Shown here: positions 24,660 through 61,461 of the stretch, in pieces
Position numbering within the stretch: the stretch's first letter is position 1
Layout of the letters: every line of letters starts with the position of its first letter
From: Savitreella phatthalungensis
Taxonomy: Eukaryota
Direction of reading: 5' to 3'
Assembly: GCA_051599415.1 (NCBI GenBank)
Contig: AP039713.1
Location: 1-64,000, forward strand
Length of the DNA stretch: 64,000 bases
Program-made: the position numbers and the translations under genes
Notes under the pieces: generated by a model
What the model was told of the DNA's origin: nothing
Database searches by the model: none
The model's input: only the letters and a program-made list of their open reading frames with translations

Positions 24660-25262
24660 ATGTCCAGAATCGCTCGACTGGGGCTTGGTGCAAGGCTCTG
24701 GCGCGGTCTGGCAACGACACGTCGAGCGACGGATGATTCTGTGGTCGCTCGCGAGGACTTAGGATTGATCGAATTCAAGAAGCGCTCGCCGACTTTGCCT
24801 TTGCGTCCGACGGCTTTGCTTAAAGAGCTAGTGACTCGCGTATGGCACAACGGCGTTCTGTCCATCATCTCGCGAAGACAGTTTAACAAAGTCATCAGGC
24901 CTGACACAATCGACCTCACTCGCATCGAGCTCCTAGCTGGCGAGCTACGCGGAGAGCTCCATGCGGCAATGACCGCGAATGATGCTCGAAAGGTGCGATA
25001 CCTGGTCGGCACTTCGCAGCTGCAGTCGCGCCTCGTCAGAGCATGCAAACGCGGGAAAGCACCCGCAGACCCGTCGTTCCCGTCTTTGACGGGAATGGTC
25101 GGTCGTCTCATCAGCTTTCAGGCACAGCCTATCAACGAAGCTCGTACCCAGCTACTTACGCAAGCCGTCGTACGCTTCGATGATGGATCAGACTACATTC
25201 TTCAGGCACGCTCGTGGGTTCGTCCGATCACCTGGACCCTACAGGACATACAGAGGTTCTAG
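24660..25262 (+). CDS. Mitochondrial Tim44-like (Mba1/mL45-type) protein
   Basis: Arg-rich presequence; C-terminal QAVVRFD..YILQAR..W. Confidence 0.6.
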   Translation: MSRIARLGLGARLWRGLATTRRATDDSVVAREDLGLIEFKKRSPTLPLRPTALLKELVTRVWHNGVLSIISRRQFNKVIRPDTIDLTRIELLAGELRGELHAAMTANDARKVRYLVGTSQLQSRLVRACKRGKAPADPSFPSLTGMVGRLISFQAQPINEARTQLLTQAVVRFDDGSDYILQARSWVRPITWTLQDIQRF

Positions 25263-26365
25263 AGCTTCGAGGATGGCTCAGAAGCGTCCTCAATGGTTTG
25301 CCATCCGAGGTAGCCAAGCGGGACAAACATCTGAGCATGCGTCTTCGCCTTCAGCGAGGATGCCTGTTTGCGTGCTACTCTTGCAGCGATACCCTGAGTG
25401 ATCACGGCGAGCCGCAGGTGCGCAAAGGCCTCGCCAAAGGTCCAGTCGACTGCAGGATCGTAACCTGTCAATGAAGCGTAATGCTTGAGGACCTCAGCGG
25501 CTGTCGGTACGCCCCCGAGGTCGTCCAGGCCCTTGAAGCCTGTGAGGGAAGAATCTGCGCCCGATGGCAAGCAGTGAGGCTGCAACAAATTCGCCAGGTC
25601 TGAGAGTGGATGGCCAATCGTAGAAAGCTCCCAGTCGAGGACACCGATCACTCGCGCCTCGGACGGGTGGAACACACAATTGTCCATCTTGAAGTCACCG
25701 TGAACAATGGTAGATCGATCCTGTGGAGTGTGTTGCTTGAACCATTTTTGCATATCTGGCCAGTGAGGGATGTCGCCAACCTCTTCTCCGGTGTCTGCAT
25801 CCTTTGCAGATGCTTGCAGCGGGCACAATTTGTCAAAGGTCCTGAGCTGGCGCTCATAGAATCCCGTCGCGCGGCCGTAGCCGTCGAGCCCAACATCTTT
25901 GGGAACGACGCGGTGTATCTTCGAAATGGTCTCGACGGCCGACATCCAGCATGCACGGCGCTCCTCCTCGGATGACAACACTCTGAGTGCAGGGTTAGTA
26001 AAAATGCGCCCTTCGAGGAATTGCATGACGTAGAAGGGGGTGCCAATCACAGCCTTGTCTTCGCAAAGGCAGAACATCTGCGGCACCGGCACATCCGTTT
26101 TTTCCAGAGCTTTCATAATGCGATACTCGCGCTCAACGGCATGAGCGGTCTGAGAGATCAATTCGCCGGGTGGCTTTTTTCGGAGCACGTAGCGAAGTCC
26201 CTTGGCATCTGTGAGCAGGATTGTCGGATTCGACTGACCGTGAAGGAACTGATTGAGCTTGAGAGGATGGGAGATCGCTGGAGCAGCATGCGAAAGATAT
26301 TGTTCGAGCGACTTCACGTCAATCTTCTCGCGCAGTTCGCCAATATTGTCGGTCGTTCGAAACAT
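25259..26365 (-). CDS. Phosphotransferase (APH/ACAD10-11 N-terminal-like) with PTS1
   Basis: QFLHGQSNPT, HGDFKMDN, VLDWELSTIGHP; C-terminal SKL. Confidence 0.92.
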   Translation of the reverse strand: MFRTTDNIGELREKIDVKSLEQYLSHAAPAISHPLKLNQFLHGQSNPTILLTDAKGLRYVLRKKPPGELISQTAHAVEREYRIMKALEKTDVPVPQMFCLCEDKAVIGTPFYVMQFLEGRIFTNPALRVLSSEEERRACWMSAVETISKIHRVVPKDVGLDGYGRATGFYERQLRTFDKLCPLQASAKDADTGEEVGDIPHWPDMQKWFKQHTPQDRSTIVHGDFKMDNCVFHPSEARVIGVLDWELSTIGHPLSDLANLLQPHCLPSGADSSLTGFKGLDDLGGVPTAAEVLKHYASLTGYDPAVDWTFGEAFAHLRLAVITQGIAARVARKQASSLKAKTHAQMFVPLGYLGWQTIEDASEPSSKL

Positions 26366-26624: not shown

Positions 26625-27488
26625 CTAAACACCGCCGGAGATGAAGAACCACTTGTCGATGCTAGCATCGATTTTTGCGGGCTGGTTCTCCTCGTTCGCA
26701 GGTACTTGCGGCAGGTTCTGACCCTTGAATGGTGAGCGATCGACGCTTACGTTGCCGACCTCAACGCCGGAAGGAGCCTGAGTCTTCCCGGTGATTAGTC
26801 TCTCCCAGGCCTCTGCACATTCGTGGATGACCTCCAGAGCGTACTTCTTATTTTTGCACTCTCCGCTGAAGGCGAACTGGTTCTCCGGCTTGCCATCAGG
26901 GATCTTGTAGATGCGGAACCACTCATTCGATGCACGGATGAAGCCCGGCAGGTGCTTCTCCACATCCTCGATGTCGTTGAGCTTTGAAGCTAAAGGGTCG
27001 TTGACATCAATCACAATCACTTTCCAGTCGGTCTCTCCCTCGTCCAGAAGAGCCATGACGCCGAGAGGCTTTACTTGCTTGATCTGTCCGACATAGCCGA
27101 CAGCCTCGCCGATCTCACAGACATCAAGAGGATCGTTGTCGCCCTTCGCTTTCGTCTCCGAGTGGACCACATTCGGATCCTCCCAAGTTTGCGGGAACGC
27201 TCCGTAGTTCCAAATATAGCCGTGATGGGGGAAGCAGTTGCGTACGAAGCGGAGCTTGCCCTTCTTCGTATCTTGCTTAATCGGATTCAAGCCTTCGTCC
27301 TTGGCGATCTCCATTTTTGCGTTGGTCCATCGGGGAACTTCGACGACCATATTGAGCACTGTTTGCTCCTCGTTAGCCCACAGAGGAATGTCGTGGAATG
27401 CCGACACAGGCTGGCCATCCTGTTCGATGAAGACTCGATACTCCAGTGTGTTGGGTGCCCCAACCTGACGACGGCTAAACTGCGGCAT
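26625..27488 (-). CDS. IPP1: Inorganic pyrophosphatase
   Basis: [38 protein letters not shown] at 27488 with the frame open further upstream. Confidence 0.98.
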
Positions 27489-27765
27489 AGTGTTTCTCAA
27501 GTGTCGTGACACGGCTCGTAGACGGTCTGCCAGCGTGAAGTTCTTAGTTTCCACACGTTCAATCACCACTGGTCGTCTTTCGAACTAACGCAATGCTCGG
27601 GCCTATCCGCGGATCCTCACATCCATTATCGCATCATCAACACATCCGCTGATCAAATTCTCACGCGGAAATGTTCGGAACCAATTAAATTAATCCTTCG
27701 TGCAGCGGCAAGCGCTGCGGATATGCAATCAATTCTAGCCATTCTGCCATGACCATAAAGGGAAA

Positions 27766-29217
27766 TCACCGCCTATTGCCACTTACTCCAGCGCGTCGGC
27801 GCTCCCAGGATATCGATGATGCACGTCTGCTCACGCCAACATGAAAATCAGACAGACGAGGCGTGGGTGGACTTGGATCCAAGCAGAAGCCCTTCTGAAT
27901 GAAAGCTTCGTGTTGCATCACATCACTAGGTAGTCGCAGAGGCTCGTCTGAAAGACAGTGATACCTCACCACCAAGTCTACGAGAAGCTGCTCGCTGGGC
28001 TTGCAAAGGTAAACCTTTGGCGCTCTGTCGCACAAGTCTAGCACAGCGCCCGAAATTACCATGGCGCATGCGTCGTAAGCTGCATCCTTGATCAAAAGCT
28101 CGTCATCATGCAATCCACAAGATTCCCAGAGATGCCGCGCCACGGTCGGCCAATCGTCATAGAGAATGAATGCAGCGATTCTGAGATCTCGTGAACCGGT
28201 GCGCTCCAGAATTTGAGCCAGCTCTTCGCCTGACGCCTCAACACTCAGCGTTGCGAAGAAGTCGTCCGCCTCGAAATGCACAGGAGTTATCACGGCATCT
28301 TCCATTTGCGTCCGAGGAATAGCATCCGCGAGAATGCAGAATCCCCAGGCTTGTAAACTCACGCGATCCAAATCCATACACGCCCTCTGAATGCGGCCAA
28401 TCAGCCCATCCGCTAAGGGAAGCGGGCGTGCATCGTCCTGAAGTGCGAACAGGGTTTGACATGTGCCTCGAACGAGCGTTTCGCGCTCGCTGGGCTGCTT
28501 CAACAGAAGACGACGCCTGTATTCCAGCCTGGAAATCCTGCCATCGACAATGAGCGCATGAATTCGATCAATTCTCTGACATAATCGTCGTTGCGAAACA
28601 TAAAACGGTCGATCGATCTCCTCCAAGAGGAGCATCAGCAAATCTGTGCGCGGAAGCATGTTCATATCAGTGACTGCCCGATCAAGGAAGTCTTTCACGA
28701 CTCGGGCCGGAGTTGGTGGCATGCTCTCTTGAAAAGGCCGCATTCTGCTTGCAGCTCTTCGCAGCGTCAGTCTGTCGCGCGGTCCAGCAGCTAGGACTAT
28801 GCGGCGGATGTTCTCGTCGCGCTTCGCGTACCAGACAAGGCGCTCCACCGGAATACCCGCATCGCTCAGATGATTGACAAAACGTTGAATGCTGTCTCTT
28901 GGGAGTAAGGGCAGAGCAGTTCCCATAGTATCGATGCCAACGCGCCGGGAGCAGAGTTCCTTCACGAATCTCTCGAGTCGTTCCCTGCTGAAGCCTTCTT
29001 TCCGTGGCGCTTCTCGGGCTGCAATATCATTATAAAGTCTGACCTGAGCCAGGAGATTGCGCAGCGGACTGGTGTTATGTTCCCACGCCTGTCGCGTTGT
29101 CAAGGCATTCTCGTCCTTCACTCTGGAACTGTACGCGAGACCGTTGACGGCGACTGCGGTCGGCACTACAAGACTAAAGCCCGGTTGCCAAGGTTGATCG
29201 AAAGACCTCGCCGTCAT
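27766..29217 (-). CDS. Hypothetical protein
   Basis: 483-aa ATG ORF; no recognised domain. Confidence 0.7.
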   Translation of the reverse strand: MTARSFDQPWQPGFSLVVPTAVAVNGLAYSSRVKDENALTTRQAWEHNTSPLRNLLAQVRLYNDIAAREAPRKEGFSRERLERFVKELCSRRVGIDTMGTALPLLPRDSIQRFVNHLSDAGIPVERLVWYAKRDENIRRIVLAAGPRDRLTLRRAASRMRPFQESMPPTPARVVKDFLDRAVTDMNMLPRTDLLMLLLEEIDRPFYVSQRRLCQRIDRIHALIVDGRISRLEYRRRLLLKQPSERETLVRGTCQTLFALQDDARPLPLADGLIGRIQRACMDLDRVSLQAWGFCILADAIPRTQMEDAVITPVHFEADDFFATLSVEASGEELAQILERTGSRDLRIAAFILYDDWPTVARHLWESCGLHDDELLIKDAAYDACAMVISGAVLDLCDRAPKVYLCKPSEQLLVDLVVRYHCLSDEPLRLPSDVMQHEAFIQKGFCLDPSPPTPRLSDFHVGVSRRASSISWERRRAGVSGNRR

Positions 29218-30184: not shown

Positions 30185-30675
30185 ATGACCGAAAACATCA
30201 CCAACTTCAACACTGTTGATCTCTTCGCCGAGACCGACGACACACAGCCGAAGAACTACATCCGTACGCCTGCCCTTTCGCGAAATCTCAGACTACGCAT
30301 CGCACGTATCCATCGTGTACTAACCCGTCCTTCCATGCACAGATATCCGCATTCAGCAGCGAAATGGTCGCAAAACCCTGACCACTGTACAGGGTGTGCC
30401 TACGGAGTTTGACCAGAAGCGCATTCTGAAGGCCTTAAAGAAGGATTTCGCCTGCAATGGCACGATCGTTAAGGATGCCGAGATGGGCGAGGTAATTCAG
30501 CTTCAAGGCGACCAGCGCCTAAAGGTAAGCGAGTTCCTCACGACTGAGCTGCCCATCGCCAAGAAGACCATCAAGATTCACGGGTAAGGATCTAATCTAT
30601 TCGGTGCTGCTCGACCGCAACACAAGACTGGCACAAATCGAATAAAACTGTATTACTGACACGGATAGTTTCTGA
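30185..30675 (+). CDS. SUI1: Translation initiation factor eIF1; 3 exons (30185-30263, 30343-30583, 30669-30675)
   Basis: Spliced YIHIRIQQRNGRKTLTTVQG...FACNG...LQGDQR...IKIHGF; introns carry GT donors, TACTAAC/TACTGAC branch sites and AG acceptors. Confidence 0.96.
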
Positions 30676-57333: not shown

Positions 57334-60300
57334 ATGCCCGAGCGCATAGAATTCTCCCTCAACTACATCGACTACGAGCTCTTTCCGCCCACAGCACTTG
57401 ACCAGAGCTTCTTTGGAGCGAGCTCGACAGATGGCGTGTTCGAGGCTGTTCCTATCATCAGGCTTTTCGGGCGTACAGACGCAGGTCAGAATGTGTGCGC
57501 TCTCGTCCACGGGATATTCCCGTACATGTTTGTCGAGTACAAGGCGGGTAGTCTTGATCGCAAAACCGTCGAGGGCGTCCAACAGCGCGTTTGTAGGGCG
57601 ATCAATGCTTGCCTTGCCACAGCTTTCCGCAAGAATCCGCACGACGACAACAATCAGTATGTGGCCTCTGTGAGACTATGTCGAGCAGTGCCATTCTACG
57701 GACTGCACGCTGGGTGGAGGCCATACTTGAAGATATCTCTCCTCTCCCCCCGCCACATGACGCGACTTGCTGATCTTTTCCGACAGGGCACGATCACCGG
57801 AGAGCCGACGCAGCCTTTCGAGTCCCAGCTGCCATACTTGTTGCAATTCATGATCGACTATAATCTCTTCGGTTGCGGCACGGTTTCGTGCGCGAAAGCT
57901 CTCTTTCGTCAGCCACTCCCATCTAGACACGAAGCGCCGCTCACAGGCTCGTGGACGGACTCAGCAGGTGTCACGGTCAAAATCTTGCACGAGGGCAACG
58001 TGGCAGATGACAGCATTCTCGATGAAAAGTTTCCGCGAACGACGCACGCCGCCCTCGAATTCGACGTCGAAGCTATCGATATTGAAAATCGCCGTGCGCT
58101 TACTGAGAAAGCGATTCATGGGGACATTGTCACCGAAGGTCGCAAGACCGGCGTTGTTGATGATCGCATCCTCACATCCCTGACGGAGCTGTGGCGTGAA
58201 GATCATGCACGTAGGCAAGCCCTGGGCCTTGCTCCGTCACAGTCGCAACAAATGCGCTCAGGTCAGCGTGCGAGACATACGCGCTGGAACAACGAAGACG
58301 CGACAAATGAGCAGTTGCGTAAGGTGCTCGAGAGCAAGCAGCGCCAGGTTGAGGAGCAATCCGCTGACGTTCTGCTTGGCGAGCTCAGAACCACATTTCA
58401 GGACGTAGCTTTGTCATGCTCTGAACAACACGAATCAATTCGAGGACAAGTCGACGATATAAGTGATGAGCCCCAGACTCGGACTTTCCAGTACGGAAAC
58501 CTGGTACCTCAACTCTCGCAAACACAGGCCAGGCTTGTTCGTCAGCCGGGTCGGCTTGTACATGAGTATCGGCAGTCAACGATTTCCGTTTTTCTCAGCA
58601 AGTCAGATCGTTTGCGCGGCGGCGGCAATCATCGAGATCTCCCAGCTCCGCCGATGCAGGCTTCTCTCGGTCGCCCTACCCAGCAAATTGCCTTTCCGGA
58701 ACCCTTCTTCTCAAGATTAGCTGATGTGCCTGCCCTCTCGAGGCAGTATGGCATGCTCGAAAAACGTCCAATTTCCTCGCATGCGAAGCATCGCCAACCA
58801 TTCCTCCCTGACACGGCGCTCAAGGCAGTCTATAGTCGCTGGCGCTACTTGCCGAAGGCGCCAGTGGCGCGTGCCGCAGAAGGCTCGGCCTCCAAGAGTC
58901 GCATCACTCACACTGTGACCTTGCCCACGCAGGTCAAGGAGGCCTCTCAGCTTTCACGAATCAGTCAATCGGACATACCCTTGAGCACGCTAAGCCTGGA
59001 GATACACGCTGTCGCAAAGACCGACATGCTGCCAAATCCTGTGGACGATCCTGTCGTCGCTGTGTTCTGGTGCTTCAAGGATTTCGGCTTGGGAATTGAA
59101 GCTCGCAGTGGCACGCTTTTCTCCAGGCAAGAATTGACTGGCTTCCAAAAGGTGACGGATGGCTACTACGCTGTTGATACTGAGCTCGATCTCTTCATGG
59201 CTGTGGTCGAGCTAGTACGCACCTTTGATCCTGACATCGTGGTCAGTTACGAGATCCAGAATGCGTCGGTAGGCTATATACACGAACGCGCAAAGTTGGT
59301 CTATCAGTTGGACTTCTGCGAAGAACTCGGTCGGGCGCTCTCGATCGAGCGCGACAGACCGGTCTTCCATGATCGGTGGGGTGAAACTCACGCTACCTCG
59401 GTGAAGATTCAAGGTAGACACGTCCTGAACCTGTGGCGCACCATGCGAAGCGAGCTTAATCTCCTGCAGTACACGCTGGAGAATGTCTGCTTCCACCTTC
59501 TCAAGCTAAGAATACCCAAATACTCGGCCGACACGCTGCACCGGTGGCTCACATCGCGACAGATCGCTTTGCAAGTCCGAGCGCTTGAGTACTACCAACA
59601 GCGCACCCTTCTCAATCTCACCATCATAGAGCAACAAGGTATTCTATCGCGTGTTAGTGAGCAGGCACGCTTGCTGGGCATCGATTTCTACTCTGTCTTT
59701 TCCCGGGGTTCGCAATTCAAGGTTGAATCGCTCATGTTCCGCATTGCCAAGCCAGAGTGCTATATGATGATGGCTCCGAGTAGAAAGCAGGTTGCTCAGC
59801 AGAATGCTCTCGAGTGCCTCCCGCTTGTCATGGAACCAATCTCTGGCTTCTACAACAACCCGGTCGTTGTCCTCGACTTCCAGTCACTCTATCCGTCGAT
59901 CATGATTGCTTACAATCTCTGCTACTCAACCTGCCTCGGGAAACTCGGTTACGAGGGACTCGAGTCGAAATTAGGGGTCACGCACTATTCGGCTGATCCA
60001 GTCACTATGGTCGAACTCCAGAATCATATCGACGTGTCCCCAAATGGCGTTCTGTTTGTCAAAGAATCAAGAAGGCGGTCGGTGCTAGCCAAGATGCTTC
60101 GCGACCTGCTCGAGACTCGAGCTATGATCAAGGACGGAGCGAAATTGTATCCTGGTGATGCCCGCATGCAGAAGGTCATGCACAACCGCCAGCTTGCTCT
60201 GAAACTCATCGCAAATGTGACCTATGGGTACACATCGGCGTCGTTCTCTGGCAGGATGCCGTGCGCTGACATTGCGGACGCAATTGTCCAGACTGGTCGA

Positions 60301-61461
60301 GAAACTCTGGAAGCCGCTATTGAGCTCATTCACGCACATCCGACCTGGGCTGCTCGGGTTGTGTACGGAGATACTGATTCACTGTTCATTGAGCTTCGAG
60401 ACCGGACAAAAGCCGCAGCATTTGATATTGGTCGACAGATTGCAGATGCCATCACCGGCATGAATCCTTCCCCAGTCAAGCTGAAGTTTGAAAAGGTCTA
60501 TCTCCCATGTATTCTACTGGCCAAAAAACGCTACGTAGGCTTCAAGTACGAAAAGCTCGATGACAAGTTTCCATCATTTGATGCTAAGGGCATTGAGACA
60601 GTACGAAGAGACGGCACGCCTGCAGAGCAGAAGATTGAAGAGAATGCGCTCAAGCTATTATTCCGTACGGGCGACCTGTCACAGGTCAAAGACTATTTCC
60701 AGCGTGAGTGCTCGAGCATTCTGTCAGGGAAAATTTCATTGCACGACTTCTGCTTCGCCAAAGAGGTCAAATTGGGCAGCTATAGCACGAAGGGCGTACC
60801 TCCACCTGGAGCCGTCATCTCGGCCAAGTCCATCGCGCGAGATCCGCGTTCAGAGCCACAGTACGGAGAGCGCATTCCGTACGTCGTCACAAGTGGCAGT
60901 TCCCGCAGCCGGCTGGTGGATCGCTGCGTGGCGCCGGAGGAACTCCTGCTCAACCCGGACTTGCGACTGGATGTAGAATACTACATCGGCAAAAACCTCA
61001 TACCCCCTCTTGACCGCATATTCGCGCTGATGGGAGTCAATGTCAGATCATGGTACGACGACATGCCACGGGCGACGCGGCTAAACATTGTCGCTGTGCC
61101 ACAAGCACACCAACAAGTCCAACAGGTCACGAAGACAACGCATTTAATCGAGGACTTCTTGGGATCGTCGCACTGTCCTGTTTGTAGGACAGAGCAAAGT
61201 CGTCCCGGTGTCTGTAACATCTGCCTGGCGCGGCCGGCCGAGACGACCTTTGCCCTGCAGATGCAGGCGACAGCCCGAGAGCTGGCCCATCAGACGATTC
61301 TACGGGTGTGCTGGTCGTGCGTCAATGTCTCACCCTTCAACGAGGTCGCGTGTGTGTCGAAAGACTGCGCACTCTACTATCGCCGCGTCGAGCTCGGTCG
61401 TCAAGTACACATCAATCTCGTGCACGACCTGCTCGGGGATCATATAGATATGACGTCATAG
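57334..61461 (+). CDS. REV3: DNA polymerase zeta catalytic subunit
   Basis: HGIFPY, SRGSQFKVES, LDFQSLYPS, KLIANVTYGY, YGDTDS, C-terminal CysA/CysB. Confidence 0.98.
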   Translation: MPERIEFSLNYIDYELFPPTALDQSFFGASSTDGVFEAVPIIRLFGRTDAGQNVCALVHGIFPYMFVEYKAGSLDRKTVEGVQQRVCRAINACLATAFRKNPHDDNNQYVASVRLCRAVPFYGLHAGWRPYLKISLLSPRHMTRLADLFRQGTITGEPTQPFESQLPYLLQFMIDYNLFGCGTVSCAKALFRQPLPSRHEAPLTGSWTDSAGVTVKILHEGNVADDSILDEKFPRTTHAALEFDVEAIDIENRRALTEKAIHGDIVTEGRKTGVVDDRILTSLTELWREDHARRQALGLAPSQSQQMRSGQRARHTRWNNEDATNEQLRKVLESKQRQVEEQSADVLLGELRTTFQDVALSCSEQHESIRGQVDDISDEPQTRTFQYGNLVPQLSQTQARLVRQPGRLVHEYRQSTISVFLSKSDRLRGGGNHRDLPAPPMQASLGRPTQQIAFPEPFFSRLADVPALSRQYGMLEKRPISSHAKHRQPFLPDTALKAVYSRWRYLPKAPVARAAEGSASKSRITHTVTLPTQVKEASQLSRISQSDIPLSTLSLEIHAVAKTDMLPNPVDDPVVAVFWCFKDFGLGIEARSGTLFSRQELTGFQKVTDGYYAVDTELDLFMAVVELVRTFDPDIVVSYEIQNASVGYIHERAKLVYQLDFCEELGRALSIERDRPVFHDRWGETHATSVKIQGRHVLNLWRTMRSELNLLQYTLENVCFHLLKLRIPKYSADTLHRWLTSRQIALQVRALEYYQQRTLLNLTIIEQQGILSRVSEQARLLGIDFYSVFSRGSQFKVESLMFRIAKPECYMMMAPSRKQVAQQNALECLPLVMEPISGFYNNPVVVLDFQSLYPSIMIAYNLCYSTCLGKLGYEGLESKLGVTHYSADPVTMVELQNHIDVSPNGVLFVKESRRRSVLAKMLRDLLETRAMIKDGAKLYPGDARMQKVMHNRQLALKLIANVTYGYTSASFSGRMPCADIADAIVQTGRETLEAAIELIHAHPTWAARVVYGDTDSLFIELRDRTKAAAFDIGRQIADAITGMNPSPVKLKFEKVYLPCILLAKKRYVGFKYEKLDDKFPSFDAKGIETVRRDGTPAEQKIEENALKLLFRTGDLSQVKDYFQRECSSILSGKISLHDFCFAKEVKLGSYSTKGVPPPGAVISAKSIARDPRSEPQYGERIPYVVTSGSSRSRLVDRCVAPEELLLNPDLRLDVEYYIGKNLIPPLDRIFALMGVNVRSWYDDMPRATRLNIVAVPQAHQQVQQVTKTTHLIEDFLGSSHCPVCRTEQSRPGVCNICLARPAETTFALQMQATARELAHQTILRVCWSCVNVSPFNEVACVSKDCALYYRRVELGRQVHINLVHDLLGDHIDMTS

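Follow-up and report, generated by a model that had tools for sequence, protein, structure and literature searches.

Does the 5' leader of a fungal inorganic pyrophosphatase gene encode, with no AUG of its own, a signal that could direct part of the enzyme into peroxisomes? The question is raised by a stretch of 64,000 nt from Savitreella phatthalungensis (GCA_051599415.1, contig AP039713.1, positions 1 to 64,000), referred to below as the window, whose minus strand carries an IPP1-type gene for soluble inorganic pyrophosphatase (PPase) with its canonical ATG at 27488-27486 and a TAG stop at 26627-26625 (Table 1). The product has the family I inorganic pyrophosphatase domain (Pfam PF00719, E 5.7e-51) and shares 77-85% identity with fungal IPP1 proteins along its whole length, so that both domain and orthology assign it to the IPP1 type of family I. 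Ahead of the ATG the frame stays open and includes the nonapeptide RLRAVSRHL, a match to the type 2 peroxisomal targeting signal (PTS2). A preliminary description of the window, made from the sequence, had proposed that leaky initiation at a CUG codon yields a peroxisomal PPase. This peroxisomal, CUG-initiated isoform is still the best single explanation, if a tentative one, its probability being put a little short of even.

In outline, one IPP1 mRNA would give rise to two proteins. Most ribosomes would scan to the AUG at 27488 and make the cytosolic enzyme, while a minor fraction would initiate at a near-cognate codon in the leader, most likely the CUG at 27533, because it has the best context and is the closest. 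Provided that transcription extends past 27533, a start there would add 15 residues, with the PTS2 nonapeptide at about residues 4-12; Pex7 would bind this signal and carry the minor isoform into peroxisomes, where it would hydrolyze the pyrophosphate (PPi) formed by acyl-CoA synthetases.

The leader itself agrees with the preliminary description in all details that can be checked. Reading toward the ATG, its codons include, in order, ACG CTG GCA GAC CGT CTA CGA GCC GTG TCA CGA CAC TTG, and 32 open codons lie between the ATG and the nearest in-frame stop upstream, a TAG at 27587-27585, with no ATG in any frame across 27621-27489. The CTG at 27533 does combine a purine at -3 with G at +4, and no AUG lies in frame or between it and the main start. 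Contexts of the other in-frame near-cognates are weaker, except for that of the ATT at 27563 (G at -3, G at +4). A PTS2 is defined as [RK]-[LVI]-x5-[HQ]-[LAF], its central residue being hydrophobic, and as a rule falls among the 40 N-terminal residues of the protein (PMC7710942; the pattern is also in a figure legend of PMC7214817). RLRAVSRHL fits this published definition, with Val at position 5, and since the frame opens 20 codons ahead of the motif, any in-frame start would place it within the first 40 residues if the leader is translated. Farther upstream there is a cluster of five ATGs with short open reading frames (ORFs), and beyond it further ATGs at 27756, 27750, and 27742. The cluster, at 27645-27622, ends abruptly, which suggests that the main transcript begins downstream of it.

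The nonapeptide has counterparts in many other fungi. Annotated IPP1 models from the Pezizomycotina are often 340-490 residues long, versus the usual ~290, and their N-terminal extensions contain nonapeptides such as RTAQIARH[LF], 40-70 residues ahead of the conserved FHDIP anchor; the motif in the window is 42 residues ahead of the same anchor. A protein search with IPP1 residues 1-75 gave six matches, none carrying an N-extension. The closest protein relatives are 84-85% identical, and their odd N-termini are ORF calls through an intron, which are uninformative on the leader. A scan of metagenome contigs added 80 loci, in 20 of which the tblastn match begins at or before query residue 21 and hence spans the motif. 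When database proteins and loci with at least 45 residues before the anchor were taken together (135 N-regions), 102 matched R-x3-[LVIHQ]-[LSGAK]-x-H-[LAF], the remainder being mostly near misses or yeasts.

To this pattern search was added a MAFFT alignment without any motif filter, which took in every sequence of 85 or more residues, counted through the end of the anchor, and yielded 97 distinct Pezizomycotina-type N-regions, from 128 of that type. A homologous nonapeptide stands at the same place in 96-97 of the 97. By position, the counts are R 95 at position 1; T 55, S 28, and A 9 at 2; A 65 at 3; Q 82 at 4; I 59, L 34, and V 4 at 5; A 89 at 6; R 71, G 10, and Q 5 at 7; H 96 and Q 1 at 8; F 49 and L 48 at 9; and S 70 at the position that follows. 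The flanks are Ser/Thr/Pro-rich, of low complexity and unconserved; the nonapeptide is conserved to about the same degree as the start of the catalytic domain. The window version fits the PTS2 definition everywhere and departs from the Pezizomycotina consensus at positions 2-6. Because the positions that define a PTS2 are intact while positions 2-6 differ, the comparison shows the pattern expected of selection on a signal, rather than of recent inheritance. The preliminary description had named conservation upstream of IPP1 in relatives as a check; in these other fungi a homologous element is present, but the exact RLx5HL form is not general: position 2 varies in the Pezizomycotina, and the His in basidiomycete-like sequences.

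Versions of the motif also occur outside this group. In L025, a Ustilaginomycotina-like contig, RISLQARHL begins nine residues after an AUG in weak context. At 55-56% identity, two PPase transcripts of more distant eukaryotic origin carry fully canonical nonapeptides, RLSYLARHL 8 residues after a Met (L061) and RLSAVSSHL 26 residues after one (L073); in both, the enzyme itself begins downstream of the nonapeptide at an internal Met. Among 150 representatives at 50% identity, 57 begin with M and have 50 or more residues ahead of the domain; a canonical motif with hydrophobic position 5 occurs in three of these versus 0.6 expected, numbers too sparse for mapping its distribution. One of the best representatives (P0258) is a predicted protein of 5113 residues with 20 separate pyrophosphatase-like stretches, which may be a repeat array or an artefact of assembly or annotation.

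How the extensions are started in other fungi could be compared at 22 distinct loci, in which the upstream frame is bounded by a stop and both starts are identifiable. At -3 of the upstream AUG there is a pyrimidine in 20 of 22 (T 14, C 6), while at -3 of the canonical AUG there is a purine in all 22 (A 20, G 2). Between the two starts, 14 loci have no ATG in any frame, over spans of 19-117 codons. With a weak upstream AUG, a strong canonical one, and no ATG between them in 14 of 22 cases, the extension generally looks like a minor product of leaky scanning; by the same comparison a CUG in strong context would be functionally equivalent to a weak AUG. All 14 stop-bounded loci with the motif have an in-frame upstream AUG, and the window is the sole case without one. 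From that AUG to the motif there are 43-88 residues in Pezizomycotina-type loci, 8 in L061, and 26 in L073. In 63 of 81 long models the first 25 residues contain no more than one acidic residue and three or more basic ones, while acid-free short N-termini number just one in 39; because most long models are acid-poor and basic in this way, the start of the long isoform appears to resemble a mitochondrial presequence.

Two further sequence patterns were seen at these loci. The upstream AUG is often found as TGC ATG, a weak context, on both ascomycete-like and basidiomycete-like contigs (L002, L007, L018, L025, L031, L035, L040-L042, L064, L068, L074); the window has TGC ATA at 27727-27722, in the frame of the ORF starting at ATG 27742, as if an old start had mutated. 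In many Pezizomycotina loci an AAA AT[TC] (Lys-Ile, always with an AAA codon) is invariant 4-9 codons ahead of the nonapeptide (L002, L033, L040-L042, L044, L057, L063-L065, L070, L077), and its AUU or AUC is a near-cognate in A-rich context. A near-cognate with A at -3 is found within the last 10 codons ahead of the motif at 20 of 28 distinct loci, while the three 10-codon intervals before that give 25 of 67; since the loci share ancestry, the contrast is no more than suggestive. This second pattern allows a broader and rather speculative reading, regarded as unlikely, in which IPP1 of the Dikarya would be a gene with three destinations, the weak AUG serving the mitochondrion, a near-cognate in strong context just before the nonapeptide the peroxisome, and the canonical AUG the cytosol. 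The window would then be a stripped-down form, having lost the mitochondrial part and kept the peroxisomal and cytosolic isoforms, that is, the module of near-cognate plus PTS2.

Several observations weigh against the peroxisomal reading or are neutral toward it. The Pezizomycotina nonapeptide fits a PTS2 at positions 1, 5, 6, 8, and 9 but not at 2, where T, S, or A stands instead of L, V, or I, and with 43-88 residues between it and its AUG it falls outside the N-terminal 40. In basidiomycete-like sequences the His is replaced by F, L, T, or I, and yeast-type IPP1 loci have lost the motif altogether, along with the presequence. In the window, the codon-usage log-likelihood of the 32 leader codons is +0.9 bits, versus 6.1 +/- 3.6 for coding chunks and -7.6 and -9.8 for the off-frames, which marks them neither as plainly coding nor as plainly non-coding; folding of the leader RNA gave no structure beyond that of shuffled sequences and no downstream hairpin that might boost a non-AUG start (z +1.2 and +0.8). 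A small share of one sequencing run, the kind of which was guessed, gave four contig pieces that cover only 26634-27278 and none of the leader; three of the four are less than 90% alike and so come from other organisms. Three PPA2-like representatives (P0290, P0294, and P0310) carry RLx5HL near their N-termini, one of them at residues 4-12. Finally, no pyrophosphatase appears in a peroxisome proximity proteome of Histoplasma (text and five supplementary files), which counts only weakly, since enrichment would not be expected of an enzyme that is mainly cytosolic.

Taken against these points, the proposal of a leaky-CUG peroxisomal PPase keeps its canonical motif, the homology of that motif, the best-context CTG, and precedents in print (PMC4207609, PMC7214817). 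Its novelty and the choice of peroxisome over mitochondrion come out weaker than first stated.

It is the latter choice that the first of the alternatives concerns. Mitochondrial presequences are basic, acid-poor, and amphipathic, with a processing site of the R-2 or R-3 type. On this account the CUG- or near-cognate-initiated extension would be translated, but as a mitochondrial or dual mitochondrial and peroxisomal signal, supplying the mitochondrial PPase that the long, AUG-initiated isoform provides in other fungi. The composition of the extension is compatible with this: the 25 residues from the CTG, which take in the first residues of the enzyme, include six Arg and a single acidic residue, an Asp (counted by eye). 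In other fungi the motif follows the presequence-like leader described above, the R-H-[LF]-S with which most Pezizomycotina motifs close is compatible with an R-3 processing motif as well, and basidiomycete-like sequences keep R-x-[LF]-S while losing the His. The PPA2-like proteins with RLx5HL belong to a paralogue type that is mitochondrial in baker's yeast, and yeasts with yeast-type IPP1 have a separate PPA2; the motif of the PPA2-like proteins could reflect dual targeting, or it could be an old part of PPase presequences. A literature search on PPA2 together with Pex7 produced a co-expression list only. Non-AUG mitochondrial isoforms are, moreover, common in yeasts (PMC7214817, PMC7049704).

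The details of the motif argue the other way. A processing site would be predicted to hold the Arg at position 7 more firmly than the His at position 8, but the reverse is seen (Arg in 71 of 97, His in 96 of 97), and R-H-L is followed in the window by Arg rather than Ser or Ala. The presequence-like part is gone from the window while the nonapeptide is kept, as would be fitting if the nonapeptide served something other than import into mitochondria. A mitochondrial or dual signal is judged unlikely, though it is a reading to be kept in mind.

A second alternative, also considered unlikely, is that the leader has no useful translation and that the motif is a remnant of an ancestral AUG-initiated extension that now survives as 5' untranslated region (UTR). 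Two in-frame stops stand upstream, an in-frame AUG is absent where all 14 other stop-bounded motif loci have one, and TGC ATA at 27727-27722 is similar to the TGC ATG found at the upstream start in many other loci; the weakly coding-like codon usage and the expression contigs that stop short of the leader point the same way. A mere remnant would not, however, be expected to keep all five constrained positions, as this one does even though positions 2-6 differ from the versions of all other lineages. The frame to the AUG is also intact, and the best-context CUG precedes the motif by 3 codons. Yeast lineages without the extension show no trace of the motif, from which it would follow that an unused motif decays fast.

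The preliminary description had itself named a spliced upstream AUG exon as an outcome that would remove the non-AUG start, and such a join is possible in frame. If an exon from ATG 27742 to 27665 were spliced to 27584, an AUG-initiated isoform would result in which, as elsewhere among fungi, the PTS2 would come after a presequence-like start. The ATG has A at -3 and G at +4, the 26 codons are presequence-like by composition, the donor would be GTGAGA at 27664 and the acceptor the TTAG ending at 27585, and both TAGs would be lost with the intron, as would the five ATGs of the short-ORF cluster. Its weakness is the branch site. Enumeration of upstream ATG, GT, and AG combinations up to 28000 that restore an open frame through the motif gave 27 in-frame configurations, this one included, and none has YTRAY 6-45 nt before the acceptor. 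By contrast, the confirmed intron in the SUI1/eIF1 gene of the window places TACTAAC about 20 nt ahead of the AG, and two more candidate introns in the window carry CTAAC or CTGAC 15-25 nt before theirs. Three earlier AGs would compete with the required acceptor, and with the exon beginning 25 nt past the stop of the upstream gene, the transcript would have to start inside that gene. Splicing of this kind is quite improbable, and if it did occur only the non-AUG part of the peroxisomal reading would be wrong. The SUI1/eIF1 gene that served as the intron reference (30186-30590, plus strand) has at least two short introns (GTACGC...TACTAAC...CAG, and one with GTAAGG at the last codons); a scan of the whole window for introns was noisy and usable for a few clear examples.

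As for pure coincidence in a 5' UTR, short motifs do arise by chance, and six-frame translation of the whole window (127,996 positions) contains RLx5HL three times and the refined consensus [RK][LVIQ]xx[LVIHQ][LSGAK]x[HQ][LAF] six times, but both are satisfied together only at 27524, the chance expectation is about 1e-3 for a 24-position leader, and the motif occupies the homologous place of a motif conserved in orthologues, so that a chance match is very improbable indeed.

The genome is compact and intron-poor. Past the IPP1 stop there are seven sense codons and then a TGA, and the read-through extension ends without a type 1 peroxisomal targeting signal (PTS1), as had been noted at the outset. 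Directly downstream on the same strand is the APH-family ORF, whose SKL end, also noted earlier, is PTS1-like; two neighboring genes may therefore both have peroxisomal forms. On the other side, the upstream ORF gave nothing in protein-family searches, including NCBIfam. Its stop is at 27768-27766, leaving about 280 bp before the IPP1 AUG. It has a consensus GTAAGT donor 6 codons ahead of this stop, and with a TTGAT branch-like site at 27732-27728 and an acceptor CAG at 27717-27715 this makes a candidate in-frame intron of 72 nt (27786-27715, minus strand); if the intron is real, the stop of the upstream gene would move to a TAA at 27687-27685, nearer the IPP1 leader. A DNA polymerase zeta gene (REV3; 57334-61461, plus strand) has its best named relative in Protomyces lactucae-debilis (70%), with other contigs at 72%, followed by Orbilia and lichen fungi at ~60% identity. 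The lineage of the window would, by these relationships, be a poorly sampled, Taphrinomycetes-like ascomycete.

Table 1. Features of the IPP1 locus and its flanks (window coordinates; near-cognates and ATGs are listed by the position of their first base).
Feature	Coordinates	Strand	Remarks
APH-family kinase-like protein	25259..26365	-	PF01636, E 1.8e-42; ends in SKL (PTS1-like); directly downstream of IPP1
IPP1-type soluble inorganic pyrophosphatase, coding sequence	26625..27488	-	translation of 287 aa plus stop; intronless
In-frame open codons of the 5' leader (putative N-extension)	27489..27584	-	32 codons; no AUG in any frame
Nonapeptide RLRAVSRHL	27498..27524	-	canonical PTS2 match; ends 3 codons ahead of the AUG
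CTG, best candidate non-AUG start	27531..27533	-	A at -3, G at +4; 3 codons before the motif
Other in-frame near-cognates upstream of the motif	27534..27571	-	ACG 27536, AAG 27545, GTG 27554, ATT 27563, GTG 27566, GTG 27569
Two in-frame TAG stops	27585..27605	-	27587-27585 and 27605-27603; close the extension frame upstream
Five upstream ATGs	27620..27645	-	27645, 27637, 27634, 27626, 27622; ORFs of 1-7 codons
Candidate upstream AUG exon	27665..27742	-	26 codons, presequence-like composition; joins 27584 in frame if intron 27664-27585; weak
Upstream same-strand ORF	27766..29217	-	483 aa; no family match

Acyl-CoA synthetases within peroxisomes release PPi. Literature searches on a peroxisomal PPase gave only a prediction for Ustilago Ipp1 and an activity in rat liver, with no experimental demonstration for a fungus; other literature searches found no account of the Pezizomycotina nonapeptide, of the leaky-scanning layout of IPP1, or of a non-AUG IPP1 isoform. 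Both the mechanism and the candidacy of this enzyme for a PTS2 are already in print, separately, and the window is a further case, with an enzyme different from pgd1, rather than a new mechanism. It does offer a minimal test case, with a 100-nt leader, one candidate CUG, and one canonical PTS2. What the comparison adds is that the nonapeptide is among the most conserved parts of fungal IPP1 N-extensions, which appear built for leaky scanning. Whether its destination is the peroxisome, the mitochondrion, or both bears on how one essential enzyme is shared among compartments, and the case also bears on the evolutionary replacement of AUG by non-AUG starts and the reverse.

Among systems that can be set beside this one, PPA2 is likewise a family I PPase with an N-terminal targeting extension, which in some representatives includes RLx5HL, but it is a separate paralogue with its own AUG, whereas the gene in the window is of the IPP1 type. 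Ipp1 of U. maydis is closer, sharing the enzyme, the kind of signal, and the end of the protein that carries it: an N-terminal PTS2 was predicted, along with an alternative Met farther downstream, by the group that later reported the pgd1 signal (Stiebler et al., 2014, PMC4207609). There the extension starts at an AUG and the cytosolic form at a second one, while the extension in the window has none. The same paper cites PPase activity in rat liver peroxisomes, and its supplements list read-through PTS1 cases only.

The nearest mechanistic parallel is pgd1 of U. maydis, encoding 6-phosphogluconate dehydrogenase, the 5' UTR of which has a cryptic PTS2 that starts 39 nt before the AUG, with no in-frame AUG (Kremp et al., 2020, PMC7214817). 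Initiation there is at AGG AUU, at about 2%, a reporter with green fluorescent protein was found in peroxisomes, and RNA-seq gave no sign of splicing (PMC7214817). The likeness extends to the position of the nonapeptide a few dozen nt before the AUG (39 nt there, 36 nt in the window), to the lack of an upstream in-frame AUG, to a near-cognate shortly upstream, and to a minor peroxisomal isoform, predicted in the case of the window, of an abundant cytosolic enzyme. The enzyme and lineage differ, and the pgd1 start, about 20 codons before the AUG, is proven, whereas the CUG in the window is a candidate from its sequence. The signal in the window, unlike that of pgd1, would descend from an AUG-initiated extension of the sort seen in other fungi.

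In its overall design the locus resembles the DualAUG and DualNCC genes, in which a weak first start and a strong in-frame second AUG enclose a targeting peptide (Wallace et al., 2020, PMC7049704). The text and one supplementary file of that paper make no mention of IPP1, the "pyrophosphatase" of the paper being a cap-removal reagent, and the cases described are mitochondrial and cytosolic. They include dual-localized tRNA synthetases in which AUG and near-cognate starts have been swapped among fungi (PMC7049704), and such an interchange of start types between species is a feature that IPP1 would share.

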